DNA of 64,000 nucleotides from the IMG/VR virus record IMGVR_UViG_3300045988_149468, positions 75,803-139,802 of that record, one strand, 5' to 3'. Positions 1 through 23,918 of this stretch are shown here, piece by piece (within the stretch, counting starts at the first letter, position 1; each line of letters starts with the position of its first letter). The notes under the pieces are model-generated. The model had not been told where the DNA came from, made no database searches, and worked only from the letters and a program-made list of their open reading frames with translations. The position numbers and the translations under genes were made by a program. This DNA is from a virus.

Positions 1-2
1 GT

Positions 3-1427
3 ACAGACAAATTAAATACAACTGCTAAGGATTTAAAAGGGGCAGTTAATGAACTTAATACACAATATAAAGATATCGCATCTAGGACTATTACAACCGA
101 AGAGAGAAATAAATTAAATAGTCTAAATAATTATGATGACACAAGTATAAAAAATGATATACAAACAATTAATACACAATTAGGAGATATTGCGAACAAA
201 TTTACAACCGAACAAACAGATAATAATTTTATATTAAAATATGGTGATAAAATAATAGCAACTATTCCTATAAACGGAACATTAGTTAATTATGGTAGTA
301 TAGTTATATCTTGTAATGAAATTTTAGAAATAAACGAAGGTGAAACATTAGACATTGAAGTTTATTTAAGTTCAAAACCTACAAATAATCAATCTATAGT
401 TATTACAACAAGCAATTCTAATATAACTACATCAGTAAGTGAATTAACTTTTACCCCTAATAACTATGCAACAAGTCAAATTATTACTTTAACTGCTATA
501 CATGATGTTAGTTCATTTGATGATAAAAATTGTTTAGTTACATTTGCAAGTGAAAATGTAGAAAATATAACTATTACTGTTACTATAAAAAATACTGATG
601 TTCAACAGTCACATTATATTACAGATGGATTAAGTTTATACTATGATTTTACAGAAACTCCAACAAACCCAACAACTGTTTATGATAAAGTTAATAATGT
701 ATCTATATATAATAAAAATTATACAGCTGATAATTATACAAGCAATGGTGTGTATTTGATAAACGGTGGCGGTTCAGAAGCATATAAATTTGGCTCTAGT
801 AGTGTTAGTGTTTTCGAATATCAAACAATGCCTGAATTTAACAATTTCTTGAATAAAATCAAAGAAGGTAATGGATTGACTATTGAGTATTTCGGACAAT
901 ATATTCCTGTATCTATCATGTATGCATATAATAGTGGGGTTAATGCATCGGGTACAGGAGCAATTGGTGGTGGATATTTAACAAAATACGAGTCTCTAGG
1001 TGGTGTTACCTTTAAATATTTAAATACATCTAATGAAACAACTAGCGTTAGTTTAGCTCAAAGTGATAAAGCAACAAAAGATGGTCAATCAATACTTGCT
1101 TATTCCGCTGATAATAAAGCTGATACTTATATACATCTAGTTATTACTGCTGATGAAACAGGAAAATTAACATGGTATTTAAATGGAAATGTTATGAGTA
1201 ATACTGCTACTGCAACTGATTTTGCATCGTGGGATTATGATACTATGTTTAAAGCTAATTATTGTATGCTTGTTAGATGTGGAGTTGAAGATACAAATAG
1301 ACTTATATACCCCGCAACAAGTATAAAAATATATAATAGAGCTTTAATACAAGATGAAATAAAAACTAATTTAGAGTATGAAATAAGCAAAACAAATTTT
1401 GTTAATTCAGCAAGTGTTACTCCCTAG
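3..1427 (+). CDS. tail fibre / receptor-binding protein, C-terminal part (5' end outside window), LamG/concanavalin-like C-terminal domain
   Basis: Frame 3 is open from base 3 to TAG 1425-1427. The track ORF 750..1427 is only its GTG-initiated tail. KGAVNELN fibre-like motif near the start; LTWYLNGN...IYNRALIQDEI resembles LamG_3 domains. Confidence 0.55.
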   Translation, partial: TDKLNTTAKDLKGAVNELNTQYKDIASRTITTEERNKLNSLNNYDDTSIKNDIQTINTQLGDIANKFTTEQTDNNFILKYGDKIIATIPINGTLVNYGSIVISCNEILEINEGETLDIEVYLSSKPTNNQSIVITTSNSNITTSVSELTFTPNNYATSQIITLTAIHDVSSFDDKNCLVTFASENVENITITVTIKNTDVQQSHYITDGLSLYYDFTETPTNPTTVYDKVNNVSIYNKNYTADNYTSNGVYLINGGGSEAYKFGSSSVSVFEYQTMPEFNNFLNKIKEGNGLTIEYFGQYIPVSIMYAYNSGVNASGTGAIGGGYLTKYESLGGVTFKYLNTSNETTSVSLAQSDKATKDGQSILAYSADNKADTYIHLVITADETGKLTWYLNGNVMSNTATATDFASWDYDTMFKANYCMLVRCGVEDTNRLIYPATSIKIYNRALIQDEIKTNLEYEISKTNFVNSASVTP

Positions 1428-3351
1428 TGCGGCTACAAGTTATTCTTATACAGAATTACCTTATGCTGTAAATACAATTCCTGCATCTGCTATAAATGAC
1501 TGTGAAATTTTAGGAACTGTTGAGAATGACGAAGTAGCCCAAATTAATGATAATTATATAAGTTGTTATAAAAGTGGAGAAACAAATATAAACATTCAAG
1601 TGAACTATAAAGCATCAAAGATCTTTAACATAGAAGTTCCTTTAAAAGTTATTGATACTGTTGATTATGAAGCAACTTCTACTAGAACAATTGAACCTAC
1701 AGGTATATCAATAGTAAATAAAATTACTGAATTGAAATTAGGGGAAGAATTTGTCCTATTGGCAATACTATATCCTTACCATCCTTATATGGATAATTTA
1801 ATTGAGTTTACATCAAGTGATGATTCAATATGTTCTGTTAAGTTTGGTGTTTTAAAAGCTAATAAAATAGGAACTTGTACTATTACTGCAACTGGTATTG
1901 GAACAAACATATCAGAAAGTTTTAATATAAACATAATAGCGAATGAAGAAGAAAGTTTATTAGATTCGGAGATATATAACGTTTTATTACCTTGTGTTAC
2001 CACAAATGGTCAATTATATAATGACGGATCCAATGAAGAAGAGACAACTTATGCTATCCAAGATTTATTAAGCTATGCAAGTGAAAATAATTATAAAAAA
2101 ATAGTATTTCCAAAAGGAACTTATTCTGTAACGGCTGATATTTATGGATCTGATGTCATTGGACCTACATTGTTTTATGTACCATCTAATTTAATAATTG
2201 ATTTTTCAGACGCTATAATTCAAATGCAACCAAATTCACATACTTTATCTCCAAACGGAACTGCTGGAACTGGCGGTGGATATACGACATTTATGTTTGA
2301 TAACAATTGTCAAAATAGTAAAATAATAAATGCTGATATTAGAGGTTGTAGAGAATTAATAGATTATGATATAGCAACAACCGGAGAACAATGTAAAAAT
2401 GTAAGTTTTTATGATGCTGTAAACTGTTCTTTAGAAAATTGTAGTATAGGAAATAGTTGTGGTTTTAATATGGCTATGATAAGAAATACATACAATGGTT
2501 GGGATGGAAGAATATTTATAATGCCAAGTAACATAGAGGCTGGAGGAATAGCAGATGACGGTTCAAAAGATGATGTAAATACATCATGGAATTGGAGAAC
2601 TATAAATATGTTAAGTCTAGATAAATTAGGAGATAGACTTAGTTTTGATATCGGAAATTATCAAGGTTGGGGTGGTTATCAAATAGCAGGTAGATTATAT
2701 GATATCGCTTTCTATGATGAAAATGAAACCTTTATAGAAATTATGAGAAATTGTAGGGTTTATTGTAGATATAATAGACCAAGTAATTCAAAATATTTTC
2801 ATATAGTTTTTCATCAAGAAGAACAACCTACAGAAGGTGTTACTGATTATGGATATTTATATACACTTCAAAGTACAAAAGAACCTTATAGATGTTCTAT
2901 AAAGAATTGTGTTATACATGATAACTATTCTATAGGAATAGCTATAGTTGGTGGAAAAAATAATACATTTGAAGGAAATACATTTATAAATAATAAAGGT
3001 CGTGACCCAAATTGTCATCTTGATTATGAAGATGGTAGAGAGGCTATGATAGGCGATATATGGAGATATAATTCATTTGATAGCCGAAGCGGATATTTAT
3101 GTATTATGGCAGGAAACGCTATGACATTTAGAAATAATATATTTAACTGTTCTGTACAATTTACAGGAAGATGTGAAGGTTGGAGAGTTTATAATAATAA
3201 ATTCAATGGTTCAACAATAACTCAAGGAACTCAATCTGATTCGGTTTTTGCTTTTAACTTATTAAATAAAACTACACTTGAAAACCCTTCGTACTATCAT
3301 GGAGAAAATTCTCAATATAAAGTACATTATTTTAATAATACTGTGTTATAA
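1399..3351 (+). CDS. tailspike / depolymerase-like protein (Big_2 Ig-like domain plus right-handed beta-helix, pectate-lyase fold)
   Basis: Big_2-like segment ICSVKFGVLKANKIGTCTITATG. YAIQDLLSYASENNYKKIVFPKGTYSV and repeated NCxIxxN/GNTFINN turns are typical of beta-helix tailspikes. The start is non-canonical (TTG 1399 or GTG 1414, no SD) and overlaps the upstream gene. Confidence 0.55.
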   Translation: MLIQQVLLPSAATSYSYTELPYAVNTIPASAINDCEILGTVENDEVAQINDNYISCYKSGETNINIQVNYKASKIFNIEVPLKVIDTVDYEATSTRTIEPTGISIVNKITELKLGEEFVLLAILYPYHPYMDNLIEFTSSDDSICSVKFGVLKANKIGTCTITATGIGTNISESFNINIIANEEESLLDSEIYNVLLPCVTTNGQLYNDGSNEEETTYAIQDLLSYASENNYKKIVFPKGTYSVTADIYGSDVIGPTLFYVPSNLIIDFSDAIIQMQPNSHTLSPNGTAGTGGGYTTFMFDNNCQNSKIINADIRGCRELIDYDIATTGEQCKNVSFYDAVNCSLENCSIGNSCGFNMAMIRNTYNGWDGRIFIMPSNIEAGGIADDGSKDDVNTSWNWRTINMLSLDKLGDRLSFDIGNYQGWGGYQIAGRLYDIAFYDENETFIEIMRNCRVYCRYNRPSNSKYFHIVFHQEEQPTEGVTDYGYLYTLQSTKEPYRCSIKNCVIHDNYSIGIAIVGGKNNTFEGNTFINNKGRDPNCHLDYEDGREAMIGDIWRYNSFDSRSGYLCIMAGNAMTFRNNIFNCSVQFTGRCEGWRVYNNKFNGSTITQGTQSDSVFAFNLLNKTTLENPSYYHGENSQYKVHYFNNTVL

Positions 3352-3372
3352 TGAATAAAAAAAGACATTGTC

Positions 3373-3978
3373 ATGGGGGAAATTATGTTTACAGATTTAA
3401 AACAATTATTAATTCAACAAAAATTAAAAAGAGAACATAAAAATTTTTATATTTATAGACCATCATCAATAAGTTTAGCAAAAACTTCAAAGATACAAAT
3501 AAAAGGAAGTTTAACCTTTAATGATGTATATTCTTCAAACCAAAAAAGAAAATTAAGCATATTAGTTATGGGAGAAGATTCTAAATTAGAAGTTAATGGA
3601 AATTTTTCGTTTTTTAGTGGTTGTAGAGTTGGGGTTTTAAAAGGGGCTACACTTTCATTGGGTAACGGATATATGAATTTTGATTCTAAAATATATTGCT
3701 ATAATAATATAAAAATAGGGAATAGAGTTTTTATATCAGAAGGAGTAACAATAATAGATTCAGATGTTCATAGTATATCTAATAAAGATGTATCTGCTCC
3801 TATTGTAATTGGAGATAATGTTTGGATAGGAATAAATGCAACTATATTAAAAGGTGTTACTATTGGAGATGGTGCAGTAATAGGTGCTGGAGCAGTAGTT
3901 ACTAAAGATATTCCATCTAAATGTTTGGCTGTAGGAAATCCAGCTAAAGTAATAAAAGAAAATATAGAATGGAAATAG
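3373..3978 (+). CDS. hexapeptide-repeat (LbH) O-acetyltransferase, maltose/galactoside acetyltransferase-like
   Basis: GDNVWIGINATILKGVTIGDGAVIGAGAVVTKDIPSKCLAVGNPAKVIKE is a canonical left-handed beta-helix acetyltransferase C-terminus. Confidence 0.75.
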   Translation: MGEIMFTDLKQLLIQQKLKREHKNFYIYRPSSISLAKTSKIQIKGSLTFNDVYSSNQKRKLSILVMGEDSKLEVNGNFSFFSGCRVGVLKGATLSLGNGYMNFDSKIYCYNNIKIGNRVFISEGVTIIDSDVHSISNKDVSAPIVIGDNVWIGINATILKGVTIGDGAVIGAGAVVTKDIPSKCLAVGNPAKVIKENIEWK

Positions 3979-4004
3979 ACTAGAAATTAATCTAGTCTAT
4001 TTTT
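3976..4004 (+). terminator. rho-independent terminator after the acetyltransferase gene
   Basis: 9-bp stem tagactaga / tctagtcta with 6-nt loop, followed by ttttt. Confidence 0.6.
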
Positions 4005-4153
4005 AATACGCAGTTAGTTCGCAATTTAAAAATATTGCGTATATAATGTGATCAACAGAATATTCATTATATATTTTAAATATCATGTATAGAATAAACA
4101 AATAAAGGATAAATTATTATTAGTTATTCTATTTGTATGTATTTTTATTATAA

Positions 4154-4190
4154 CCCTTTAGTGATTATTTGCTAAAGGGTATTTTTTTTT
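4154..4190 (+). terminator. rho-independent terminator in the spacer upstream of int
   Basis: Stem ccctttag / ctaaaggg followed by a 9-T run. Confidence 0.55.
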
Positions 4191-4330
4191 ATTTATTTGA
4201 CAATCTTTCAGATATTTGTTATCATAATTAAAGATATAAATAATATTCTCATATTAACTTACATTATCAAATTTTCAATAGAACTATTTTATTTTTTTAA
4301 TAGTCCTATTATTTTTTTGTTTAAAATGTA

Positions 4331-4359
4331 TTGAAAATAATAACTAATTATGTTATAAT
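4331..4359 (+). promoter_or_regulatory. sigma-A-type promoter of the recombinase gene
   Basis: TTGAAA, 17 nt, TATAAT, then leader ataataattaataagaggag and ATG 4397. Confidence 0.6.
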
Positions 4360-4396
4360 TCAATTATAATAATTAATAAGAGGAGAGTAAAGCAAT

Positions 4397-5380
4397 ATGA
4401 AGAATGATAATGAAAAACTAATAAAACAAATAATGAATCATATAAAAAATAATGTTATTACCAAAGATGAAATAGAAAAAATATTATATGAAACTATAAG
4501 AGATTTTAATATTGAAATAAATATTCATCAAAAACATAATAATCAAGATATTCTCGATGAATATAAACAAGATATGGAAACTTTAGATTATTCAAGTGGA
4601 ACTATTAGAAACAGAATGTATACCTTAAAATATTTCTTAGATTATATAAACAAAGAGATTCCTCAAATTACAGTAGTTGATTTAAAAGCTTATTTAAATT
4701 TTAAAAAGAAATCAGTAAAAACTTCAACTATAAATGGATTAATTTCAGTAATAAAATCATTTTTCAGCTGGTTAGTAGAAGAAGAATACATAGATAAAAA
4801 TCCAACGAAGAAAATAAGAAAAATAAAAGAACCACAAAGAATTAGAGAGCCTCTGTCTATAGAAGAAATGGAAAATTTAAGAATGTGTTGTAAGACAGAT
4901 AGAGAAAGAGCTTTAGTTGAATTTATGTTAGCGACAGGTATGAGAGTTTCTGAAATTCAAAAGACAAACATATTTGAATTGGATCTTTCTTCAAATAAAT
5001 TAAAAACAATTGGGAAAGGAAACAAAGAAAGAATTATATTATTTAATGATAAATGTAAATTATATTTAAAACAATATTTAGACAATAGAAAAGGTAAAAA
5101 TGAAGCTTTGTTTATTTCTGAAAGAAAACCGTACAGAAGACTTGGAGTTAGAGCAATTCAAAAGATATTAACAAATATATCAAAAAGAAAAACAATTCTT
5201 CCCATTGTATATCCTCATAAATTAAGACATACTTTTGCTACATCACTATTTAATAGTGGAGAAGACATTGAAACTGTTCAATTTCTTTTAGGACATGAAA
5301 ACATAACAACAACTCAAATATATACAAAAACATCAATGGATAAAGTTAATTATCAATATAATAAATGTTTGATTGTATAA
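4397..5380 (+). CDS. int: tyrosine recombinase / integrase (XerC/D-like)
   Basis: ATGMRVSE (Arg-I), GKGNKERIILF, HKLRHTFAT (HxxR), LGHENITTTQIYTK (His/Tyr), plus an N-terminal SAM-like domain. Confidence 0.85.
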   Translation: MKNDNEKLIKQIMNHIKNNVITKDEIEKILYETIRDFNIEINIHQKHNNQDILDEYKQDMETLDYSSGTIRNRMYTLKYFLDYINKEIPQITVVDLKAYLNFKKKSVKTSTINGLISVIKSFFSWLVEEEYIDKNPTKKIRKIKEPQRIREPLSIEEMENLRMCCKTDRERALVEFMLATGMRVSEIQKTNIFELDLSSNKLKTIGKGNKERIILFNDKCKLYLKQYLDNRKGKNEALFISERKPYRRLGVRAIQKILTNISKRKTILPIVYPHKLRHTFATSLFNSGEDIETVQFLLGHENITTTQIYTKTSMDKVNYQYNKCLIV

Positions 5381-5423
5381 ATATTCTAAAATAAAGTTTT
5401 TAACCTAACTTTTTAGATCAACT

Positions 5424-5451
5424 CTTAGTTTTTACTAAGGGAATTTTTTTT
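5424..5451 (+). terminator. rho-independent terminator after int
   Basis: Stem cttagt / actaag, loop tttt, then gg aa and an 8-T run. Confidence 0.5.
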
Positions 5452-5513
5452 ATTTATTTTTAGTAATATTTTTAAGGAATATCACATATAATTCAGTAAA
5501 AGGAGGGATAATT

Positions 5514-5699
5514 ATGAAAAATAAAAAATCTTTTGAGGTAAGTTTCAAGAATAATATGGAAGACACTCTTTTATATTCCTGGTTAGAAGAAAAATTTATA
5601 ATTCATGGAAATAAGAGTGCCTATGTTAAATATGTTTTAAGAGAAAAAATGTACTCTGAATTAAATCAATCTACTCAAGTAATCAAAAGCAAAAGCTAA
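5514..5699 (+). CDS. small protein with a possible ribbon-helix-helix fold
   Basis: SD aaaggaggg 7 nt before ATG. A beta-alpha-alpha pattern (KSFEVSF / EDTLLYSWLEEK / KSAYVKYVLREKM) is inferred by eye only. Confidence 0.3.
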   Translation: MKNKKSFEVSFKNNMEDTLLYSWLEEKFIIHGNKSAYVKYVLREKMYSELNQSTQVIKSKS

Positions 5700-5789
5700 T
5701 CCAAACCAAAACATTGCTTCACCCATTTTATATCACCTCGTTTAATCATAATTATATTATTAGTTTAACCTTAAAGGAGGATTTTATAC

Positions 5790-6164
5790 ATGAAATCTTA
5801 TACTTTTGAAGAATATAAACTAATGATGAATAATAAAGAATCACTTCTTGATAAATTTATTTCAAGTCTAAATCAAATTGAATATAAAAAATTAATTATT
5901 CTGATAGCTTTGTTTATGCATAAAAATTCAATAGTATATTGTGCTACAACTGAAGCAGAGATATCTATGATGGCTAATCAAATATTGCATATTTTAATGA
6001 TATTCAGTAAGTATGGATGTATGTGTATGGGAGTTAAAGCTATTATTGAAAATGCATTACAAGGTGCAAATTTTCGACAAGCTACAACATCTGGTATTCA
6101 ATATTTTTTGATATATATTCTTTTAACATTATATCCTAAATTATTTGCTATGATTAAAATGTAA
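5790..6164 (+). CDS. membrane protein (signal-like N-terminus plus two hydrophobic helices; VirB2/TrbC-like topology)
   Basis: SD aaaggagg. KKLIILIALFMHKNSIVYCA is followed by two hydrophobic segments. No sequence family was recognised. Confidence 0.3.
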   Translation: MKSYTFEEYKLMMNNKESLLDKFISSLNQIEYKKLIILIALFMHKNSIVYCATTEAEISMMANQILHILMIFSKYGCMCMGVKAIIENALQGANFRQATTSGIQYFLIYILLTLYPKLFAMIKM

Positions 6165-6176
6165 GGAGGTTATATT

Positions 6177-6428
6177 ATGGAAGAAAAGATTGATAAATTA
6201 ATAAATATCATGGATAATTTTTTACACCCAATAGAATCATTTAAAGAATTTGGGTATCAACTTTTAATTAACATTGATAAATTTTCATTTAATATATGTC
6301 TTTTAGCAGGTTTTATAGCTTTATTACTTTATGTATTTGGGTATGATAAAGGTAAAAAATGGGCATTTATAATCCCTTGTGTATATTTGATTTTAAATAT
6401 TATCATAGGAGTAGTTGCAAATGCTTAA
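6177..6428 (+). CDS. small two-TM membrane protein (VirB3-like size and position)
   Basis: SD taaggagg. Two C-terminal hydrophobic helices. The stop overlaps the start of the ATPase gene. Confidence 0.3.
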   Translation: MEEKIDKLINIMDNFLHPIESFKEFGYQLLINIDKFSFNICLLAGFIALLLYVFGYDKGKKWAFIIPCVYLILNIIIGVVANA

Positions 6429-8625
6429 CATTCCTATTTCTAAATATATAGAAATTAAACAACAAAAATATATTTATCTAAAACTTATACCCACTAAATC
6501 AATTAAAAATAATCAAACATATGATATATTAAAATTAGTTAATAAAATGTTTATAAATCTAAATAAACAAATAAAAATTCAAGATAAAAAATTAATAATA
6601 CAAACTCAAATGAAAGCTAGTTATTATATCTACATTACTAAAGAGAAAATCAACTTCTATTTTATTGTTCCTGAAGTATTCTATTCTAAATTTAAAATTA
6701 AATTTAAAGAAGTATGGAAATCGGTTCAAATAGAGGAATGTAATTATATACCACACATTGAAAACGGATTACAATATCAACTAATATATAAGAAGAAAGA
6801 TTTTCTTTCTAGTAATGCAGATATGAGAAATAATGAATTATTAAATGCAAATATGACAATAATGGAATTATTAGAAAATCAAGAAGAAGTGGGAATATTA
6901 TATAATTTCCACCCAATTTCAGAAAAACAAATCAATTATTTTAAAATTTCATGTCAAAAATTCATCAGAGAATATAAGGAAAATTCCATAAAATATACGA
7001 ATAATCAATATTTTAATATAATAATTAAATGTTTAGATTATATGATAGAATTTATCAACTCAACGTTAAACTTTATATTTAATACTAAACAAGTAAAAAA
7101 AATAACACCACAAAAATATTCAGAAAGCACTATAAGAAAAAGTAAATCTGAAATGTGTAAAACTCAAATAGTATTAAATATAAAAGGAAAAAATCAAAAC
7201 CATTCAAAGACATTACTTGAAGGTTTAGTTAATTCATATAGTGAAATTTCAGATGATAATGAATTTATATGTAAAAAGGTTAAGAATGGAAATATAAAGT
7301 CATTAAATACTTCAATATATGAGTGTTCTAATTTTATAAGTTTACCTGGAGATAGTTTAATCAAAGAATATAATAATATAGAACATAATAATATTTATGA
7401 TAAGTCAATTCCTAATTGTTTGAAGAGAGGGCAAGTCCTTCTCGGAAATTCTTTAAAGAATACAAATGTTTATTATTCATCTGATAAAGAATGTAGTAGA
7501 TTAGGTAAAGTATTTATAGGAGGAATGGGAAGTGGAAAAACCTACTCAATGATTAAATTAGCCAAACAAATAATAAATAAAGGTGATGGATTAGTCGTGT
7601 TAGATATTATTAAAAATTGTGAATTAGCAGATAGCATTAAGAAAATAACGCCTAAAGATAAATTAATTGAAATAGATTGTGCAAATATAGATCAACTACA
7701 AGGGTTTTGCTTTAATGAATTAACTTATAATAAATTAGACGAATATGATAAATTAGCTAAATGCATGGAAAAAGCTAATCAACTTCATATTTTGTTAAAT
7801 ACAATTAATACAGATACTAAATTAACACCTAGAATGGTTAGGTATTTTTATTCAGCTTGCACAATAGTCTTTTATAGTAATTTTAATGCTAGTTTTAGAG
7901 AGATAACGAGGGTACTTATGTATCCTAAAGAACGAAAGAAAGCCTTAGAATCGCTTACAGAAAGGCAACTTTTTTTACTTCAAGATGAAATAAATAATTT
8001 AAAAGAGTTGGATAAAGAAAATAAGAACGGAACAATAGAAAACTATGATTCTAAAATAGATGGAATAATTGATAGAGTTAGTATTTTACAAACTAATTTA
8101 TATACCAAGTTAGCATTTAATAAATCAGCAGATAAGAATATTAATTTTGTTGAAGCATTAAGTAAAAATAAAGTAATATTAATTAAAGCTAAAGAAAGTA
8201 ATTTCACTAATAGAAGTATTAGAGACTTAATAGCAACATTTTTTATTAATAAGGTATGGTTAAGCAAACAATTAAATGCTAATACTAGAACAGAAATATT
8301 CATAGATGAGATCAATTTATTCCCAACAGCACAAAATATATTCCAAGACACATTAACTGAATGTAGAAAATATAATTTTATACCTACAATTTCATTACAC
8401 TTCTTTAATCAATGTAATAAAAAATGTAAAGAAGCCATATTAAATTCTGGAATGAATTTTATATTATTAGCTGGTGCAGACATAAGAAATTTTTATGAAT
8501 TAGAAACATTATTTAATAAAGAAGGGTATGATAAGATTGATTTTGTTAATCTCAAAAGATATCAAGCATTATGTTTAATTAGGAATGAAGAAACTGTATA
8601 TTCATCTTTTGTGGTAAATATGTAA
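6421..8625 (+). CDS. P-loop ATPase of the FtsK/HerA/VirB4-VirD4 superfamily
   Basis: Walker A GGMGSGKT at about residue 370, then VVLDIIKNCEL. Walker B EIFIDE at about residue 630, then ECRKYNFIPTISLHFFNQ...ILLAG, resembling T4SS ATPase C-terminal motifs. ATG 6421 has GGAG 10 nt upstream; the track start is TTG 6415. Confidence 0.5.
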   Translation: MLNIPISKYIEIKQQKYIYLKLIPTKSIKNNQTYDILKLVNKMFINLNKQIKIQDKKLIIQTQMKASYYIYITKEKINFYFIVPEVFYSKFKIKFKEVWKSVQIEECNYIPHIENGLQYQLIYKKKDFLSSNADMRNNELLNANMTIMELLENQEEVGILYNFHPISEKQINYFKISCQKFIREYKENSIKYTNNQYFNIIIKCLDYMIEFINSTLNFIFNTKQVKKITPQKYSESTIRKSKSEMCKTQIVLNIKGKNQNHSKTLLEGLVNSYSEISDDNEFICKKVKNGNIKSLNTSIYECSNFISLPGDSLIKEYNNIEHNNIYDKSIPNCLKRGQVLLGNSLKNTNVYYSSDKECSRLGKVFIGGMGSGKTYSMIKLAKQIINKGDGLVVLDIIKNCELADSIKKITPKDKLIEIDCANIDQLQGFCFNELTYNKLDEYDKLAKCMEKANQLHILLNTINTDTKLTPRMVRYFYSACTIVFYSNFNASFREITRVLMYPKERKKALESLTERQLFLLQDEINNLKELDKENKNGTIENYDSKIDGIIDRVSILQTNLYTKLAFNKSADKNINFVEALSKNKVILIKAKESNFTNRSIRDLIATFFINKVWLSKQLNANTRTEIFIDEINLFPTAQNIFQDTLTECRKYNFIPTISLHFFNQCNKKCKEAILNSGMNFILLAGADIRNFYELETLFNKEGYDKIDFVNLKRYQALCLIRNEETVYSSFVVNM

Positions 8626-8631
8626 AATAAT

Positions 8632-8655
8632 AGGAGGATAATTCCTCCTTTTTCT
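8632..8655 (+). terminator. rho-independent terminator ending the rightward module
   Basis: Stem aggagga / tcctcct, loop taat, then tttttc. Confidence 0.6.
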
Positions 8656-8990
8656 TTATTTTTCTTGAATTATTTTTAGCATAATACTCACTCAAATTGC
8701 TATAACCTTGATATGAACATTCCACAATTAATTCTCAGTCGCTATCGCTCCTTTCATAATTGTTACATATATCATAGCATATGATTTTTGTCTTAAAAAA
8801 TATTCCAATTTAACAATATTTTAACATTTATATTATTTATTAATTTGAAGACAATATTAATATACACTTTTACCAACCAATTATTAATTATTATATTCAA
8901 TATATACATTGACAAATAATAATTAATATGAATGCTTATGTTACTATCTTATTAATTACTATGTAAGTATAATTTTAATATTAGTATTTT

Positions 8991-15353: not shown

Positions 15354-17642
15354 TTATTCACATTTTGTATATGAACAATTAGGGCAAGAAACACAATTTC
15401 CTGTACTATCAAGATCACTTGAACAAATTGGACATTTTCTAAAATTTATTGCAAACCAATCTTCACCATATTTTTTAATCAGTTCTTTTTCTTCATTTGT
15501 AAATTTATTTTCTTCTTTTATTGTTCTATTAGTTTTATAATATCCTAATTCTACTAATTCAGATAAACATTCATTCTGTAATTCTTTTTCGACATCTAAT
15601 AAAGTATATAATATACTTGTTCCACAAGAATTTCCTTTTGATACATATTTTCCTTTCGCCCTAGCTGTTGCATAACTACTACATTTACCTGCTCCTTCAA
15701 AAGATTTTTTATAAGATGCTAATGTACTTCCATGTCTTAATCCATTAGATATTGATATTGCTATATTTTGAATATTCAAAGCACAACCACCAGCTGAGGA
15801 ATTAGTAACATAGACATCAAATATTCTTTTTTCTTTTGGAATTACAGATATATGTAACATCATTTTTCCACAACCCGAATATATTTTTCTTGTAACTTCT
15901 ATTAAATTGTCAGGTTTCTTTTCATATTCACCTCTATGTAATTCATCTTCTATTTTGCTTTCATTGGTAGTTAATATTCCCATCCTTTTGCAACCATCTC
16001 TAAAACAAGTAATACCTTTAAGTCCATACTTCCATGCTTCCATATATATATTTTCTATATCTTCTACTGTTGTATCATTAGGTAAATTTATTGTTGAAGA
16101 TATTCCTGTATCTATATATTTTTGCCAAGTACCTTGCATTTTTATCCTATTTATATAAGATATATCTTGTGATTCAATGAAATAATTTGGTAAATTATCT
16201 GAATTATCATTTGTTACTTGTTTATAGTCTTTTACAATTTGACTATCTACTTTAAAATATTTATCTCCATTACCTAAACTTTCTGTCTTTCTATTATATG
16301 AGAACCTAAAATTAGGTTCAATACCAGTTGATGTACCTAGCATAGTCCCTATGCTTCCAGTAGGAGCAATAGAAGTTAATGATACATTTCTTAATCCATT
16401 TTCTTTAACTATCTCTTTTACTTCATCGCATATTATATCATTATACAATTTAGATTTTAATAAAGAATAATAATTATAATTAGGGAAAACGCCCTGTTCT
16501 TTAGCTAATAATGAAGATTGTTTTATGCATTCGTTTATAAAGATATTTCCTAAATCTTCACTAAATTTTAATGATTGTTCATCTCCATATGTAAATCCTA
16601 ATTTAATAAATGTATCAGAAAGTCCCATTATACCTATACCAACTTGTCTCCATAATTTCGATTGATCTTGTTGCTCTTTTAATGGTAATCTATAAATGTT
16701 TTCATCTAATACTTCATTCATAGCTCTAACTACTACTTTAATTGCTTTTATAAATGATTCATAATCAAATTTTGAATCATTTGTAAATGGATTTAAAACA
16801 AATTCCGATAAATTTAATGATGAAAGCAAACATGAGGAATTTTCTGATAAAGGTTGCTCACCACATGGATTTGTTGAAGTTATATTATAATTTTCATAAC
16901 CATTTGTAAGATTATAATTTTGTATTCTATTATTAAATAAACAACCAGGTTCTCCCATTTCATGATTATTCTCACATAATTTTCTAAATATCTTTCTTGC
17001 ATTTACATTTTTTTTCAAAATATCTCCATGCTCAGTTATAAATTTTAATTCCCAATCTTTATTATTTTCGACAGCTTTCATGAATTTATCATTAACTTTA
17101 ACTGATATATTCGCCTTAGTAACCCTATCTAAATCTTTTTTTATATCTATAAATTCTTCAATATCAGGATGATCTATTTCCATTGTCAACATCAAAGCAC
17201 CTTTCCTGTTGTTTTGTCCTATTATTTCTGTAGTTAATGAATATAAATCCATGAAACTAACTGCCCCTGTTGTTGTCTTAGCACTATTATTAACTTTCAT
17301 TCCATTAGGTCTTAAATTACTAATATCAAAACCTACTCCACCACCAAAGCTGAATACTCTTGCTGATTTTTTAGCTGTATCAAATATTGATTCTATACTA
17401 TCTTTAGGTGCTGGAATTACAAAACAATTTGACATACAACTATTATTATTTATTCCTCTATTTGAAAGTATGCGTCCTCCAAATAAAAATTTCTTATCTA
17501 TTATTAACTGTTTTAATTCTTTATCCCCATTTGATATTCTATCTAGCCATTCATCGAATGTTTCATTATCATATTGATATTTATTTTTCCATATATCTTG
17601 TCCTAATTTATTGTCTTTTCCTAACCACTCTTGTACTAACAT
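15354..17642 (-). CDS. nrdJ: ribonucleotide reductase, class II (adenosylcobalamin-dependent)
   Basis: GGGVGFDISNLRPNG, TTGAVSFM and TNPCGEQPL (a class II-type active-site loop, not the class I NLCxE). C-terminal CPICS...CVSCPNC zinc ribbon. Confidence 0.8.
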   Translation of the reverse strand: MLVQEWLGKDNKLGQDIWKNKYQYDNETFDEWLDRISNGDKELKQLIIDKKFLFGGRILSNRGINNNSCMSNCFVIPAPKDSIESIFDTAKKSARVFSFGGGVGFDISNLRPNGMKVNNSAKTTTGAVSFMDLYSLTTEIIGQNNRKGALMLTMEIDHPDIEEFIDIKKDLDRVTKANISVKVNDKFMKAVENNKDWELKFITEHGDILKKNVNARKIFRKLCENNHEMGEPGCLFNNRIQNYNLTNGYENYNITSTNPCGEQPLSENSSCLLSSLNLSEFVLNPFTNDSKFDYESFIKAIKVVVRAMNEVLDENIYRLPLKEQQDQSKLWRQVGIGIMGLSDTFIKLGFTYGDEQSLKFSEDLGNIFINECIKQSSLLAKEQGVFPNYNYYSLLKSKLYNDIICDEVKEIVKENGLRNVSLTSIAPTGSIGTMLGTSTGIEPNFRFSYNRKTESLGNGDKYFKVDSQIVKDYKQVTNDNSDNLPNYFIESQDISYINRIKMQGTWQKYIDTGISSTINLPNDTTVEDIENIYMEAWKYGLKGITCFRDGCKRMGILTTNESKIEDELHRGEYEKKPDNLIEVTRKIYSGCGKMMLHISVIPKEKRIFDVYVTNSSAGGCALNIQNIAISISNGLRHGSTLASYKKSFEGAGKCSSYATARAKGKYVSKGNSCGTSILYTLLDVEKELQNECLSELVELGYYKTNRTIKEENKFTNEEKELIKKYGEDWFAINFRKCPICSSDLDSTGNCVSCPNCSYTKCE

Positions 17643-19501: not shown

Positions 19502-21373
19502 TTATTTTGTAAATTTTTTATATTTTGTTAAAATCATTTCTTTATCTTCTAATTCTATCCATTTGTCACCTTCTTTTTTCTTTTTATTCTTAATTTGATA
19601 TCCTTTAATACTAATCACATCACCTATTTCTAATGGATCTTGCTTAAAATTCTTTTTATATATTTTTACATCTTTTAATTTACCATTTCCTATACCATAT
19701 AAAGTAATTCTAGGTGTGTATTTAGTATTTATATCTGTAATAATACATTTATTTCCCATAGATTTATCTATTATATTACAATTACCACAAAATTCAAAAT
19801 AGGTTTTAATTAATTCTATAGTGTCTGTTCCATTATCCTTAATATGTTTTTCTATTGCAATTAACATTGGTAATATATCAATAAAAATATATTTTTTTTC
19901 TGTTTCTCTTTCAGCATATTTACTAAATATTTTATTTAAGCTAGGATATTTATCTTTTGATAATTGTTTTTTACCATAAAATGTTTGATAAAATTCATAT
20001 ACTTTTAATAGTTTTTGAACACCACCAAATTCACTAAAGAAATTCAATGATATTAATATTGTCATTTGTTTAGAGTTTATTTTTTTACCTATGTCAACTA
20101 ATAATTCTACAAAAGAATTATAATTATTATCTTTTAAAGAATATAATAATTCACCTGCATTTTTATTTAAGTTTTTAATTGATTTTATACCTTTATATAT
20201 AGAATTGCTCTCTCTATCTAAAAAATATTCAGATCTGGAAAATCTAAATTTAGGATTTTTAATTTCTATATTGAAATATTCCATTTCTTTGGTCAATCTA
20301 GCAGTTCTTTCAGTATCATCTTCATATTCATTTAATGCTACGGTATAATATTCTAAAGGATAATGAGATTTTAAATAAGCACCATATAAACTATCATAAG
20401 CGTAAGATAAAGAGTGACTAGCATTAAAACTGTAATGAGAGGCATTTTCAATTACTTGCCATGTTTCATTAAAACCTTCCTCTTTTCCTACCACATTGAT
20501 CCAACCTTTTTTTAATTTAATTTTTAATTCTTCTAATTCTTTTTCTTTAAACTTCTTTTTGCTAATTTTTTTAATTATTGTATATGTTTCACTTTCATCT
20601 ATACCTAACCATATCAAATATTTCATTATAGATTCTTGATACATAAGGTAATGATAACTATCTTCTAATAAATTATCTAGTTTTTTTACTCCTGTTGTAT
20701 ATTCTTTTCTTTCTATAAAATTATTTAATAAAGATGCAAATCCTGGTCTAATAGAGGCTACAAAAGCCGACATTTCTGCCAAACTTTTAGGTTTATATTT
20801 CATTATTAAATCAGTAGCAAATTTACTATCAGCTTGATTTATAGAACAGGTTAATCCTTTCTCATATATATTCCATGTTTTATCATCTAATAATTTTGAT
20901 AATTCAGTAGTCGTAGGTATTAAAATATTTGCTAATTTACAAACATCTTTTATAATTTTCCATATACTAACTTGTAAAATGTCATTTTTAAGATATTTAT
21001 ATTTATCACAATTAATTCCATCTATATTGCAAACAAATACATCTCCCGCTTTTAATAAACCTATCTCCTCACTTATAGGTTGAGATAATAATAAAGTAGA
21101 ACATGGACTTTGTGATACAGATTCTATTGTTCCGACAAAGTGCTTACTCTCTTCAATTATTTTGTTCCAATTCTCATCATCTATATAATTATCTAAATCT
21201 TTTGCTACTTCATTATAATCATTAATATTTAATCCTATTGCTTTACAATACAATCTAAATGCACTAGCTTTTTGCAAAGGTTTAAAACTTAACATCCAAT
21301 GACAATTATCTTCACCTAATAATTTCTTTGAAGCATCAATAAATGGTTGTTGTTCAGCAACATTTGTATCCAC
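19502..21373 (-). CDS. dnaE: DNA polymerase III alpha subunit, exon 2 (palm/fingers to C-terminus)
   Basis: Begins VDTNV, continuing the PD|VD catalytic motif of exon 1. FNASHSLSYAYDSLYGAYLKSHYPLEYY matches the DnaE FNKSHSAAYA...AYLKAHYP motif. Confidence 0.75.
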   Translation of the reverse strand: MDTNVAEQQPFIDASKKLLGEDNCHWMLSFKPLQKASAFRLYCKAIGLNINDYNEVAKDLDNYIDDENWNKIIEESKHFVGTIESVSQSPCSTLLLSQPISEEIGLLKAGDVFVCNIDGINCDKYKYLKNDILQVSIWKIIKDVCKLANILIPTTTELSKLLDDKTWNIYEKGLTCSINQADSKFATDLIMKYKPKSLAEMSAFVASIRPGFASLLNNFIERKEYTTGVKKLDNLLEDSYHYLMYQESIMKYLIWLGIDESETYTIIKKISKKKFKEKELEELKIKLKKGWINVVGKEEGFNETWQVIENASHYSFNASHSLSYAYDSLYGAYLKSHYPLEYYTVALNEYEDDTERTARLTKEMEYFNIEIKNPKFRFSRSEYFLDRESNSIYKGIKSIKNLNKNAGELLYSLKDNNYNSFVELLVDIGKKINSKQMTILISLNFFSEFGGVQKLLKVYEFYQTFYGKKQLSKDKYPSLNKIFSKYAERETEKKYIFIDILPMLIAIEKHIKDNGTDTIELIKTYFEFCGNCNIIDKSMGNKCIITDINTKYTPRITLYGIGNGKLKDVKIYKKNFKQDPLEIGDVISIKGYQIKNKKKKEGDKWIELEDKEMILTKYKKFTK

Positions 21374-22715
21374 CCTTTATACCGTAGCTTTCGCTATACT
21401 TTAACACTTATTTAAAAGTCGGAGTAGACTATACCATCAACGTTGATATTATCTCGGTTGCCTCTTGGTAGTCGTTGCGACCTTCCCATATCTTTCATTA
21501 GACTTAGGGCTGTGTCTCAAGATTGCCCAATCCTTAATCTTGTTACTATACCTAATTAGTTAAATTAGCCATACTTCGGTTTCCCTAGTACTTAGTAATT
21601 AAGGCTCTAAGGGGTTTCCTTGATATTCGAGGTTTTCATTATATATCACTATATAATGCGACTATTTTATTATTATATATGTTTTATTATTTATAAAAAT
21701 TTCAGAGGATTCTTTTAATATTCTTTTTATTTTCTTTAATCCTAATCCTGTTTCTTTTTGTAACTCAGGATACCCATAATAAAATTTATTGTCTTCTTTA
21801 CAAAGAAATATATTATAATTACATTTACAATTTTTATAGAATACTATCAATTCTTCCCATAATTTCTCTTTATTAACAACATAATCATCGTCTATTTCTT
21901 TAAAATGATATGCTTTTATCGTTACTCTACTTCTATTAAGTATCCCTACGTTATTGTTATATTTTTCTTTTGCAAATTTTATACATTTAAAAATTTCACC
22001 AGTCTCTAAACATACTACTCTTTTTGCCATGCCATGTTCTTCATTTTTTAAACCATTGTTTTTCATGAATTCGCTAAATTTTTTCTTCTTTTCTTCACTC
22101 CAATAGTTTCCATAATTAGGGTTATTCTCACCATCATATTTGCCTAATTTTATTTCTCTAGCATGATTTTTCATTTCTTTAGTCCAGTAATGAGCATAAT
22201 TAGGATTATTTTCTCCTTTAACTATATCTGATATTTTATTTCTAAATTCCTCACTTTTGTAAACACTATCTTCATTTGTTCTTATTTCAATCATTTTTCT
22301 TCTGAAATCTTCATCTTCCCATCTTTTCTTCGATAATTCTCCTTGTTTCTTCTTCCACTCTTCATCTGGTTTCCATCCAGATACTCCTTCTCCCCCATCG
22401 GTTTGATTTGTTAATCTATATTCGGGATAATGTTCTCTATAATATTTAATTAATGCTCTTTCATATTTAAAAGCCTCATCTTCTTTTAAATTATCTATTT
22501 TAATTCTAAAGTTACAATTATGGGTATTATACATATCTTTAAAGAATTTATTTCTTCCCGATACAGTTTCAGCCCTTCTTTCTTTCCCTTTCCCTACATA
22601 AAAAACTTCATCTGTATCTACTATAAACCATTCATAAATATAATAATTATTCATTTTTTTCACCTCCTTTCTTAATTATCTTTATTTAAATAAAACATAT
22701 ATAATAATTATGTTA
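21374..22715 (-). mobile_element. group I intron carrying a GIY-YIG homing endonuclease ORF, inserted in dnaE
   Basis: A 1342-nt interruption falls exactly between the codons for PD and VD. The 288 nt after the ORF (21374-21661) are conspicuously GC-richer and contain R-like GAGACACAGCC and S-like GGTATAGTCT core elements. The last intron base is G and the last exon-1 base is U. Confidence 0.65.
21662..22654 (-). CDS. GIY-YIG homing endonuclease (intron-encoded) with NUMOD3-like repeats
   Basis: YIYEWFIVDTDEVFYVGKGKERR is a GIY-YIG motif. GENNPNY[AG].YW[ST] repeats three times. ATG 22654 follows SD aaaggagg. Confidence 0.75.
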   Translation of the reverse strand: MNNYYIYEWFIVDTDEVFYVGKGKERRAETVSGRNKFFKDMYNTHNCNFRIKIDNLKEDEAFKYERALIKYYREHYPEYRLTNQTDGGEGVSGWKPDEEWKKKQGELSKKRWEDEDFRRKMIEIRTNEDSVYKSEEFRNKISDIVKGENNPNYAHYWTKEMKNHAREIKLGKYDGENNPNYGNYWSEEKKKKFSEFMKNNGLKNEEHGMAKRVVCLETGEIFKCIKFAKEKYNNNVGILNRSRVTIKAYHFKEIDDDYVVNKEKLWEELIVFYKNCKCNYNIFLCKEDNKFYYGYPELQKETGLGLKKIKRILKESSEIFINNKTYIIIK

Positions 22716-23918
22716 ATCGGGTAATGATTTACTCTGTAATATTCTTGTTGTACTCATAAATCTTGAAGGATATAACGTAATTGGTGAATCAAGTCTATCC
22801 AATGAAGTGAATCCTAATAATTTATTAATATAGAAACTAGGGGCTGAACCTCTCGAACTTTTTGTTATTATTCCATGATATTCAGTTGTAGCTAATTTTA
22901 TCATCTTATAATTTATTAAAAAATATTCAGCCATATTAGTATCTTTTATGACTTGCCATTCATCTTTTATAGCTTGTATATATTCATCTTTTCTGTTTAG
23001 ATTTATATTATTTAGTTCCTTTTTAAATTCTTTTTCTATTATTTCACCTAATTCTTTATTAGGATTATTTGATATATGGGGCATTTTTATATCATCATCA
23101 AACTGTATTCCTTCATATTTATCAAATATAAGAGTATTGTCTAACGCTTGTTTAATTTGTTTATCTGTCAATATACCTTGTTCTCTATATCTTTGAACAA
23201 CTGTTTTATAATTTGGATAATCTAATATAAAATTATTTTCATCTTCATAATTTATACCTTTAGCATGAAGAAATAAATCTCTATATTTGCTATCTTCAGG
23301 TTTTATATAATGGGAATCATTAGCATGAATAATTTGTATATTGTATTTATCTGCATATTCTAATAATCTTTTATTATATATCTTTTGTATATCTACATTA
23401 TGATTTTGAACTTCTAAATAAAAATTATCACCAAAATATTCTTTCATTTTAATTATCCATTCTTCAGAACCTTCAATATTTCTAAGTCTTGAAGCAACAC
23501 AAGCAGTAGTAATTATAACGTCATTAGGATTTAAATTAAACAATAATTCGTTATCTATTCTTGGTTTATAATAATATCCAGTTATATTTGCTTCGGATAA
23601 TATTTTATTAAGTTGTTTTCTTCCATTATTATTTAAAGCTATTATAACTAAATGGTAATTAGATTTATCTTTTTTGTATCTATCTTCTACATAATAAACT
23701 TCTGCACCGATCATAAGTTTTAATCCATTTTCTTTACACAATGTATAAGCTTCATATACATTGCCTTGATAACCATGTTCTGTTGTAAAATAAATCCCTT
23801 TATCACCATCCAATTCTTTAATCCTATTAATATAATCTATTGGCTTAACTATTACATCTAAACTTCTTAAATTAGAATAATGTGTATGTTTATGATAATT
23901 ATTATAACGATATTCCAA
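22716..23918 (-). CDS. dnaE: DNA polymerase III alpha subunit, exon 1 (PHP domain to catalytic PD)
   Basis: YHKHTHYSNLRSLD...FTTEHG is a PHP domain. It ends ...RFMSTTRILQSKSLPD, aligning to the DnaE motif FERFLNPERVSMPD(IDID). TTG start 23918; an in-frame TAA at 22713-22715 belongs to the intron. Confidence 0.75.

Follow-up and report, generated by a model that had tools for sequence, protein, structure and literature searches.

The 64,000-nucleotide stretch of DNA analysed here (the window; positions 75,803 to 139,802 of the IMG/VR virus record IMGVR_UViG_3300045988_149468) contains a four-gene operon at 5514-8625 that encodes, in this order, a ribbon-helix-helix (RHH)-like protein, a 124-aa protein, an 83-aa protein and a large ATPase. 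We propose that the operon is a phage-borne membrane translocation cassette derived from a type IV secretion system (T4SS), a reading to which we would give a probability of about 0.6. The proposal draws on the modelled fold of the ATPase, on the predicted topologies of the two small membrane proteins encoded ahead of it and on the conservation of the gene order. An earlier note on this DNA, made from the letters alone, had grouped the four genes with an integrase gene upstream of them, and the five plus-strand open reading frames (ORFs) that it listed are all present (Table 1).

The ATPase and its conserved operon

The earlier note had predicted a T4SS-type ATPase of 736 residues. The ORF is there, but translation more likely starts at the ATG at 6421, giving 734 residues as in the database copy P0001, than at the TTG at 6415. 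The Walker motifs are also where they had been placed, with GGMGSGKT at residue 367 and IFIDE at residue 626, 259 residues apart. The protein matches phrog_5156 over its full length (7e-72) and has no transmembrane (TM) segment (maximum KD19 1.02). In an alignment of 54 sequences reaching down to 19% identity (A1), Gly372, Lys373, Glu630, Arg505 and Arg552 are invariant and Asp629 is at least 90% conserved. An AlphaFold2 model built from this alignment (pLDDT 87.8, pTM 0.77) was compared with PDB by Foldseek, and the first match was full-length TrwK/VirB4 of R388 (E 2e-14, about 860 aligned columns), followed by the soluble domain of TrwB/VirD4 (1e-11, TM-score 0.6 of TrwB) and by HerA (1e-10). 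Because VirB4 and VirD4 share the C-domain, residues 1-335 were modelled alone (pLDDT 85.9). The top 13 matches of this N-domain were all TrwK/VirB4 chains (E 9e-6 to 4e-3, probability at least 0.95), all others had E > 0.02, and HerA was absent from the matches listed. The prediction of a T4SS-type ATPase is thereby narrowed to a VirB4-like one, and among VirB4/TraC, VirD4 and HerA, which the note had offered as possible matches for the N-domain, it is VirB4 that it resembles. Since the N-domain is of VirB4 type, a TM helix is lacking and the catalytic residues are conserved, the architecture of the ATPase as modelled is that of VirB4, with a VirB4-type N-domain and a RecA-like domain that has an all-alpha insert and in which the Walker A and B motifs are intact, and not that of a coupling protein, a HerA protein or a terminase.

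Searches with sequence models gave little beyond the P-loop. When all five proteins were scanned against Pfam, NCBIfam and PADLOC, the integrase produced the only above-threshold result. For the ATPase, the sole Pfam match was a sub-threshold one to TrwB_AAD_bind at the Walker A region, a model that several of its homologues pass and after which PGAP names them; NCBIfam returned nothing, and a single-sequence phmmer search of PDB returned noise. Its profile showed weak P-loop similarities in PDB to DptH, HerA, DotL, the STIV B204 packaging NTPase and TrwB, and the best matches of Foldseek against BFVD were the 'Msb' protein of Bacillus phage JL (1.6e-43), phage G gp156 and a further protein of 802 aa. 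Three assignments were considered and rejected. A VirD4/TraG coupling protein would have an N-terminal TM anchor, in place of which a 335-residue VirB4-like N-domain is present. A HerA/FtsK translocase would have a HAS-barrel or the FtsK alpha/beta/gamma arrangement; HerA scored more weakly than VirB4 with the full-length model (1e-10 vs 2e-14) and was missing from the N-domain matches listed. Membership in mad8 was not accepted either, the weak PADLOC match to its ATPase (5.5e-5) being confined to the generic P-loop domain.

The weak profile matches to HerA, DptH and the STIV B204 packaging NTPase, all of them in the P-loop region, could also be taken as a sign of a virion-assembly function, with the ATPase acting as a packaging or terminase-like FtsK-HerA motor as in membrane-containing viruses. 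We consider the chance of this to be close to negligible, since the N-domain matches VirB4 only, the carriers are tailed phages with canonical head-tail modules and the ATPase gene lies outside the packaging module. Moreover, the homologue orf201 can be deleted from phage 0305phi8-36 without a growth defect (PMC3357382), and the viability of that mutant contradicts the plasmavirus-type packaging role that the earlier note had put forward.

The neighbourhood of the ATPase gene was surveyed at 85 related loci, of which 76 are from IMG/VR; they were gathered using ten closer ATPase sequences, and their ORFs were called and scanned with home-made hidden Markov models (HMMs). Members of the 124-aa and 83-aa families are both encoded upstream on the same strand at 81 of the 85 loci, and the RHH-like protein is additionally present upstream at 78. 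The small membrane partners are thus conserved, and the possibility raised in the earlier note, that ATPase homologues might never co-occur with them, is not what was seen. Many of the 85 loci are closely related, so that a count of lineages is fairer than a count of loci; the operon order is kept across 22 lineages, defined by 124-aa proteins that share less than 60% identity, and with ATPases of as little as about 30% identity. Phages phiCp-D and TPDSL_ph2, a Paenibacillus prophage and a C. tetani plasmid have this order too. In the window, all four genes are preceded by strong ribosome-binding sites of the GGAGG type.

When clustered at 50% identity, the relatives of the ATPase form at least 392 clusters; 126 of the representatives have E <= 1e-30, and nearly all are 750-850 aa long. 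A tblastn search found the ATPase in 61 phage records. These include Clostridium phage phiCp-D (28% identity), Terrisporobacter phage TPDSL_ph2 (27%), SPO1 (gp27.4) and other SPO1-like, CP-51/JL-like and Tsamsa/Nate-like Bacillus phages, two Lysinibacillus phages, two 'Deep-sea' phage records and one Microcystis phage. Among 72,556 plasmids, 34 carry the ATPase (32 from Clostridium and two from Bacillus), and MOB-suite types 33 of these as non-mobilizable. The cassette is found in phages, prophages and phage-plasmids of Bacillus, Clostridium and Peptostreptococcaceae, and the named hosts are all Bacillota of the Bacillus, Clostridium or Peptostreptococcaceae type, bar the one Microcystis record. 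Hosts of these types are endospore-formers, and in the databases searched the cassette is almost confined to phages and phage-plasmids of endospore-forming Bacillota.

The family of the 124-aa protein (A4) shows a variable cytoplasmic leader, an h-region ending in sites of the VFAN, AFAA, YAM or ALA type and a mature part of about 70 aa with two hydrophobic helices, a polar loop (QG/NG) and an invariant proline, which makes three hydrophobic segments in the window protein. This is the layout of the VirB2/TrbC/TraA pilins and of archaeal TedC. The conjugative-pilin topology that the earlier note had recognised is conserved over 23 lineages, and we regard the predicted topology and its genomic context as established, with a signal-peptidase cleavage predicted near residue 53. 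A search of a large database with the profile of this family retrieved 58 relatives, none of them with a precomputed Pfam domain, and the comparison of the profile with PDB gave nothing informative. In the C. botulinum plasmid pCLK (L086 8462-11262), a distant homologue of the ATPase (24% identity, 800 aa) is overlapped by a 133-aa protein immediately upstream that scores as Pfam TrbC/VirB2 (28.5 vs a cutoff of 27.9 bits), and the PGAP name agrees.

Two further observations were made on plasmids with pilin-like genes. The plasmid pCLK is a large botulinum-toxin plasmid that MOB-suite types as non-mobilizable but MPF_T. A 54-kb plasmid-prophage of B. cereus, pb3 (L093 3902-6222), carries after its lysis genes a different ATPase with an FtsK/SpoIIIE domain, a Replic_Relax protein and a 162-aa protein, the C-terminus of which is like the pCLK TrbC/VirB2 protein (36% identity, tblastn 8e-8). 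This set looks like a second, analogous phage-plasmid group of ATPase, relaxase-like and pilin-like genes.

The family of the 83-aa protein (A5) has an N-terminal tail of about 30 residues, a first TM helix, a basic loop of the form G-[YWFL]-x-K-G-K-K with an invariant Gly, and a second TM helix. Its translational coupling to the ATPase, as claimed in the earlier note, is confirmed because the ATPase gene, with its start ATG at 6421, and the end of the 83-aa gene, stop codon included, share 8 nt (ATGCTTAA). In the Paenibacillus prophage (L007) and in phage Nate (gp271), the hairpin is preceded in the same protein by an M23 peptidase, the HxxxD and HxH motifs of which are intact, and at locus L084 an M23 peptidase is fused C-terminally to the hairpin. 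Since the M23 domain is fused at either end and a peptidoglycan hydrolase must act outside, these fusions imply that the 83-aa protein is probably N-out/C-out, with a cytoplasmic basic loop. A longer family member, of about 209 aa, is encoded at L082. Neither Pfam TcpE nor VirB3 matched the protein, and the hairpin profile found nothing in PDB or only designed proteins. Fusions of hairpin and ATPase were sought among long ATPase homologues and none was found, the N-terminal extensions of these being hydrophilic.

For the 61-aa protein encoded by the first gene of the operon, phrog_4223, a family without an assigned function, was the only family match, and Pfam gave none. An alignment of 25 sequences (A6) shows the pattern I-x-V-S-F-K / helix / G-x-K-S / Y-I-K-x-x-L, with a conserved strand, helix, turn and helix, in keeping with the RHH-like pattern noted earlier. 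The best match of the profile in PDB was the RHH domain of NikR, in register but weak (E 1.6).

Table 1. Features of the operon and of its immediate surroundings in the window
Feature	Position	Strand	Remarks
VirB4-type ATPase (as modelled), 734 aa, soluble	6421..8625	+	phrog_5156 7e-72; AlphaFold2 model, Foldseek
ATPase N-domain	6421-7425		residues 1-335
ATPase Walker A	7519-7542
ATPase Walker B	8296-8310
124-aa pilin-like pre-protein	5790..6164	+	leader, h-region, predicted site near residue 53, two-helix hairpin; alignment A4, 23 lineages
83-aa two-TM hairpin	6177..6428	+	conserved basic loop FGYDKGKKW; alignment A5, invariant Gly55; coupled to ATPase
61-aa RHH-like (ParR-related) putative DNA-binding protein	5514..5699	+	phrog_4223 3.5e-6; first operon gene
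Integrase indel cassette	4319..5442	+	promoter-like sites 4197 and 4331, Xer-like recombinase gene 4397-5380, own terminator 5422-5441
Terminator-like hairpin	4153..4180	+	12-bp stem then T-run; ends tail-fibre/acetyltransferase unit, upstream of integrase cassette
Terminator-like hairpin, bidirectional	8632..8649	.	closes operon where minus-strand genes converge

A possible mechanism and its alternatives

If the operon is a translocation cassette, one way in which it could work is as follows. Both hairpins, of the pilin-like and of the 83-aa protein, would expose their termini on the outside and their basic loops to the cytoplasm, and a hexamer of the ATPase would dock onto these loops. Hydrolysis of ATP might then extract the pilin-like subunit or assemble it into an envelope-spanning structure, or drive a substrate across the cytoplasmic membrane in either direction. 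The RHH protein, a relative of the ParR-like adaptors that are found beside ParM in sister phages, might mark phage DNA for the machine or autoregulate the operon. DNA would be the likeliest substrate, since the cassette also exists in longer versions that include ParM/ParR, an M23 cell-wall hydrolase and a putative relaxase of the Replic_Relax (MOB_C-like) type; that the cassette moves phage DNA specifically is nevertheless a tentative suggestion. We have also considered a bolder version, in which the cassette is a working, minimal conjugation-like machine owned by phages that moves the phage genome across the membrane without a virion. The RHH/ParR-like protein would pick the DNA and the pilin-like protein would form the conduit, allowing an episome or replicating genome to spread from cell to cell or to pass into the forespore for persistence in spores. 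We consider this version improbable.

The longer cassettes referred to above are found in SPO1-like and Tsamsa-like Bacillus phages. In SPO1 and JL, ParM/StbA is followed by an RHH-like protein, three tiny TM proteins, the ATPase and Replic_Relax (PF13814, 3e-12 and 3e-18). In Nate, ParM is followed by proteins of 94 and 68 aa, a pilin-like protein of 160 aa, the fusion of M23 and hairpin, a 50-aa protein, the ATPase, Replic_Relax and a Xer recombinase. A ParM/Alp gene lies directly upstream in SPO1, JL, Nate and at loci L007, L008, L012 and L088.

Several observations weigh against a T4SS-derived translocation cassette. None of the sequence models for VirB4, TraC, AAA_10 and VirB2/VirB3/TcpE in Pfam, NCBIfam or PDB recognises any protein of the operon, and the 23 members of the 124-aa family match neither TrbC (PF04956) nor T4SS_pilin (PF18895) of Pfam. 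The alignment of this family with the pCLK protein by hhalign is weak, with the mature parts in register at E 0.002-0.004 and a probability of 8-13%, and the probability is likewise 8-13% with a profile of three sequences. The TM-scores from Foldseek are modest, at 0.36 for the full ATPase and 0.35-0.41 for the N-domain; we therefore take the modelled N-domain to be a divergent VirB4-type domain and no close copy. VirB3 has cytoplasmic termini, and its C-terminal helix binds the N-domain of VirB4 (PMC12857230), unlike the inferred topology of the 83-aa protein with its termini outside. The likeness to VirB3 suggested in the earlier note holds insofar as a small two-TM protein is encoded immediately upstream of, and overlapping, a virB4-like gene, but the M23 fusions at either end speak against the VirB3 topology.

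To these must be added the parts that are missing. A Replic_Relax relaxase, an M23 hydrolase and ParM were not found in the window with tblastn and the home-made HMMs, the family scans detected no hydrolase domain within the operon, and there is no VirB6-like polytopic ORF of at least 100 aa in the 64 kb. No coupling protein was noted in the window, although no dedicated search for one was made. The earlier note was therefore right that the conjugation system is incomplete, with no relaxase, VirB6-like ORF or hydrolase found; VirB8-like proteins were not searched for. Because a VirB6-like protein, a relaxase and a hydrolase were not found in the window, a DNA channel is not evident. Furthermore, deletion of the cluster from 0305phi8-36, including the ATPase homologue orf201, gave no growth defect (PMC3357382), and no function or phenotype has been reported for the cassette family.

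The dispensability of the homologous cluster for lytic growth fits another explanation, namely that the cassette is a moron for superinfection exclusion or defence. In this case an ATPase complex anchored in the membrane, produced by a prophage or at an early stage of infection, would block or expel the incoming DNA of other phages or of conjugative elements. Temperate relatives do carry the cassette between the lysis genes and the integrase/repressor genes, which is a classic moron position, and the weak match to the mad8 ATPase (5.5e-5) could be seen in the same light. The explanation appears unlikely to us, however, since that match spans the generic P-loop domain alone, the gene set corresponds to no known defence system and the cassette is conserved in strictly lytic SPO1-like phages, where it stands beside ParM and a putative relaxase. 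It would also leave the pilin-like precursor and the peptidoglycan hydrolase unexplained.

A further alternative is a role inside the cell. The cassette could cooperate with ParM/ParR in positioning the genome, by tethering or moving phage DNA, replicating or episomal, at the membrane or the septum, perhaps into the forespore (a 'virospore'), with no transfer between cells. A ParM/Alp gene occurs within 9 kb of the ATPase gene at 35 of the 85 loci, and RHH-like paralogues take the ParR position, directly after the ParM/Alp genes, at L007, L008, L012, L056, L067, L078 and L088. The named hosts, the Microcystis record excepted, are Bacillota of endospore-forming types, and this distribution may simply follow phylogeny. 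A link between the ParM of SPO1 and spore entrapment has been put forward as a speculation (PMC12991052). In the window, no ParM was found near the cassette, and a pattern-limited scan of IMG/VR for ParM did not return contigs of the clade to which the window belongs. A VirB4-type ATPase, a pilin-like partner and an extracytoplasmic peptidoglycan hydrolase favour the crossing of the envelope, and a purely intracellular role therefore seems rather improbable.

We thus favour the hypothesis of a translocation cassette. If functional, its pilin-like protein, hairpin and VirB4-like motor would make up the smallest known bacterial T4SS-related apparatus, and one that belongs to tailed phages instead of plasmids or integrative and conjugative elements (ICEs). 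It makes testable what a VirB4 motor is capable of without VirB6, VirB8 and VirD4, whether VirB2-type filaments exist in monoderm bacteria or their phages, and whether phage DNA moves independently of virions, in conjugation-like spread or spore entrapment. Genetic studies are feasible, since the family is present in the model phages SPO1 and CP-51, in phages of C. perfringens and Terrisporobacter and in plasmids of C. botulinum and C. tetani. The existing labels of these proteins, 'hypothetical', 'lipid A export ATP-binding/permease' and 'coupling protein', are uninformative or wrong.

The integrase cassette and neighbouring genes

The integrase gene upstream of the operon encodes a tyrosine recombinase of 327 aa, as the earlier note had claimed, with Pfam Phage_integrase (E 2.9e-35), SAM-like N-domains and phrog_1 (5e-52) as matches. 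The full R-K-H-R-H/W-Y residue set is present and can be read in GMRVSE, GKGNKER, HKLRHTF and LLGHENITTTQIY as R..K..HxxR..H..Y. It is nearest to the XerA, XerC and XerD models of NCBIfam, yet falls under their equivalog cutoffs. The gene has promoter-like sites of its own and terminator-like hairpins on both sides; in all, five such hairpins were seen vs 0.7 expected from shuffles. In the IMG/VR contig L010, in which the ATPase is 98% identical, window positions 4020-4318 are joined directly to 5443-8881 with the junction inside a T-run, and the integrase cassette of about 1.1 kb is precisely absent from this contig. Among the 85 loci, a same-strand integrase directly upstream of the operon is confined to the clade of the window and one other locus, the remainder having no integrase or the usual divergently oriented lysogeny integrase. 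Phages of 130-145 kb that form a sister clade (L012 4328-5958; their ATPase is 66% identical) have a ParM-like actin gene, a ParR-like gene and a 103-aa ORF in place of the integrase cassette, directly upstream of the RHH/TM/TM/ATPase operon; the ParR-like RHH protein is 96 aa long, has an acidic C-terminal tail and is encoded by a gene overlapping that of the actin. Repeats around the integrase gene consist of T-rich terminator tails only, with no convincing att-like sites.

The integrase is accordingly a stand-alone unit that is unrelated to the operon, and the five-gene module of the earlier note is reduced to four genes, given that the integrase has its own regulatory sites, is absent from a 98%-identical relative and is not conserved beside the ATPase. 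A TcpM-like atypical relaxase was considered for the integrase and rejected, because the indel cassette is not conserved with the operon. The independence of the integrase also bears on the suggestion that the operon was captured together with it and is what remains of a decaying integrative or conjugative element, with no present function. The vicinity of an integrase and a T4SS-like ATPase and the failure to find other conjugation parts would suit such an origin. It is largely refuted, however, and highly improbable in our view, as the four ORFs are intact, with strong ribosome-binding sites and translational coupling, the catalytic motifs are invariant and the order is kept over 22 lineages with pilin-like proteins less than 60% identical. 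The cassette is widespread in lytic phages too, which makes the remnant integrative element listed among the candidate roles in the earlier note unlikely.

A contig from a human-gut metagenome matches the window at 100% identity, and the nearest named proteins are those of Romboutsia and Intestinibacter. None of 50,697 phage records was matched by the 5-kb region in a megablast search. The gene content resembles that of big Peptostreptococcaceae phages, with a split DNA polymerase III alpha, DnaB, ribonucleotide reductase, dUTPase, RuvC and several homing endonucleases. The operon sits between a tail-fibre cassette and a convergent replication arm, and in the 67% clade it is placed between tail and lysis genes.

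Other observations concern further genes of the phage. The distal tail-fibre/receptor-binding cassette is swapped among phage contigs that are otherwise 99-100% identical (window 1-4010, equal to L004 2784-7590, vs L005 5176-7589). In one version it encodes an 810-aa protein, a beta-helix protein of 645 aa and a hexapeptide acetyltransferase; in the other, it encodes just one protein, of the CotH/Big_2 type and 876 aa long. This cassette is bracketed by the genes of two Xer-like recombinases with 29% mutual identity, the first lying beyond the window, upstream of the BppU_N gene, and the second at 4397-5380. The swap could be a recombinase-assisted exchange of a host-range cassette or plain homologous recombination at conserved flanks. 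Another tyrosine recombinase (Phage_integrase 2e-37) is encoded at 61721-62665 on the minus strand, so that the phage has at least three, at 4397-5380, at 61721-62665 and just upstream of the window.

The ribonucleotide reductase of the window (15354-17642, minus strand) is a 762-aa Ribonuc_red_lgC + TSCPD enzyme. In the near-identical phage L005 (18276-22205), its place is taken by NrdD with a radical-SAM activase, and homing endonucleases of the GIY-YIG and LAGLIDADG types interrupt or flank these genes. The gene for DNA polymerase III alpha is in two parts, a PHP/N-terminal ORF and a finger/HhH ORF, with a 333-aa ORF between them (19502-21373, 21662-22663 and 22713-23918, all on the minus strand), which may be due to the insertion of an intron or a homing endonuclease. 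An ISL3-family transposase gene and two IS605 OrfB/TnpB-like (Cas12f-like TNB) genes lie within the replication arm (44730-46043, 48446-49567 and 59279-60487, all on the minus strand), and the ISL3-family gene coincides with the sole spike in GC content of the window (0.31 vs about 0.25).

Comparison with known systems

The closest known relative of the operon is a gene cluster noted once in the literature. Pathria et al. (2012) named orf200-207 of 0305phi8-36 and gp27.3-gp27.9 of SPO1 a 'DNA translocation operon' and described in this cluster a MobC-like relaxase, a coupling ATPase homologous to gp27.4, a VirB6-like protein and an MreB-like protein (PMC3357382). No later functional study of it was found in the literature since 2012. 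The cassette of the window shares with it the phrog_5156 family (tblastn to SPO1 gp27.4 7e-8, BFVD to JL 1.6e-43) and the small membrane proteins upstream of the ATPase. However, the putative Replic_Relax relaxase, the ParM/MreB-like actin and the VirB6-like protein were not found in the window version, and in SPO1 three tiny TM proteins stand in for the pilin-like and hairpin families. The ATPase, labelled as a VirD4/TraG-like coupling protein in the 2012 paper (PMC3357382), is here VirB4-like in its modelled architecture. The window cassette is hence a reduced variant of a family that has never been characterised.

The resemblance to coupling proteins is to the C-terminal domain, which in the model superposes on TrwB with the score given above (0.6, E 1e-11), whereas the N-terminal TM helices of VirD4/TrwB are replaced in the window ATPase by the 335-residue VirB4-type N-domain. 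Another point of comparison, by description, is provided by the Ced/Ted systems of archaea (CedA, CedA1, CedA2, CedB), which are minimal DNA importers made up of VirB4, a VirB2-like pilin and a VirB6-like channel, and in which the sequences of the pilins do not give them away and signal peptidase I processes TedC (PMC9905601). These systems are chromosomal and have the polytopic channel CedA/TedA, in which they differ from the phage cassette. They too are minimal derivatives of a T4SS, as is proposed for the phage cassette, with a VirB4-like ATPase, a VirB2-like pilin and another small two-TM protein and with no relaxase or coupling protein.

The VirB4 systems proper are represented by TrwK of R388 and, in monoderm bacteria, by TcpF, ConE and PrgJ of the MPF_FA/FATA type. 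They differ from the cassette of the window in that its ATPase matches no sequence model, its proximal hairpin is apparently N-out/C-out and its carrier is a tailed phage and not a plasmid or ICE; VirB6, a type IV coupling protein and a relaxase were not found in the window, the coupling protein and VirB8-like proteins not having been specifically searched for. Monoderm MPF_FA systems encode two small two-TM proteins, TcpD and TcpE, directly upstream of VirB4, and LytM domains are present in monoderm VirB1-like hydrolases (PMC12857230). The likenesses to the window cassette extend from the modelled two-domain fold of the ATPase, its active-site motifs and the lack of a TM segment to the arrangement of the genes, with two small two-TM proteins encoded upstream and the proximal gene overlapping the start of the ATPase gene as in prgI/prgJ, just as tcpE precedes tcpF (PMC12857230).

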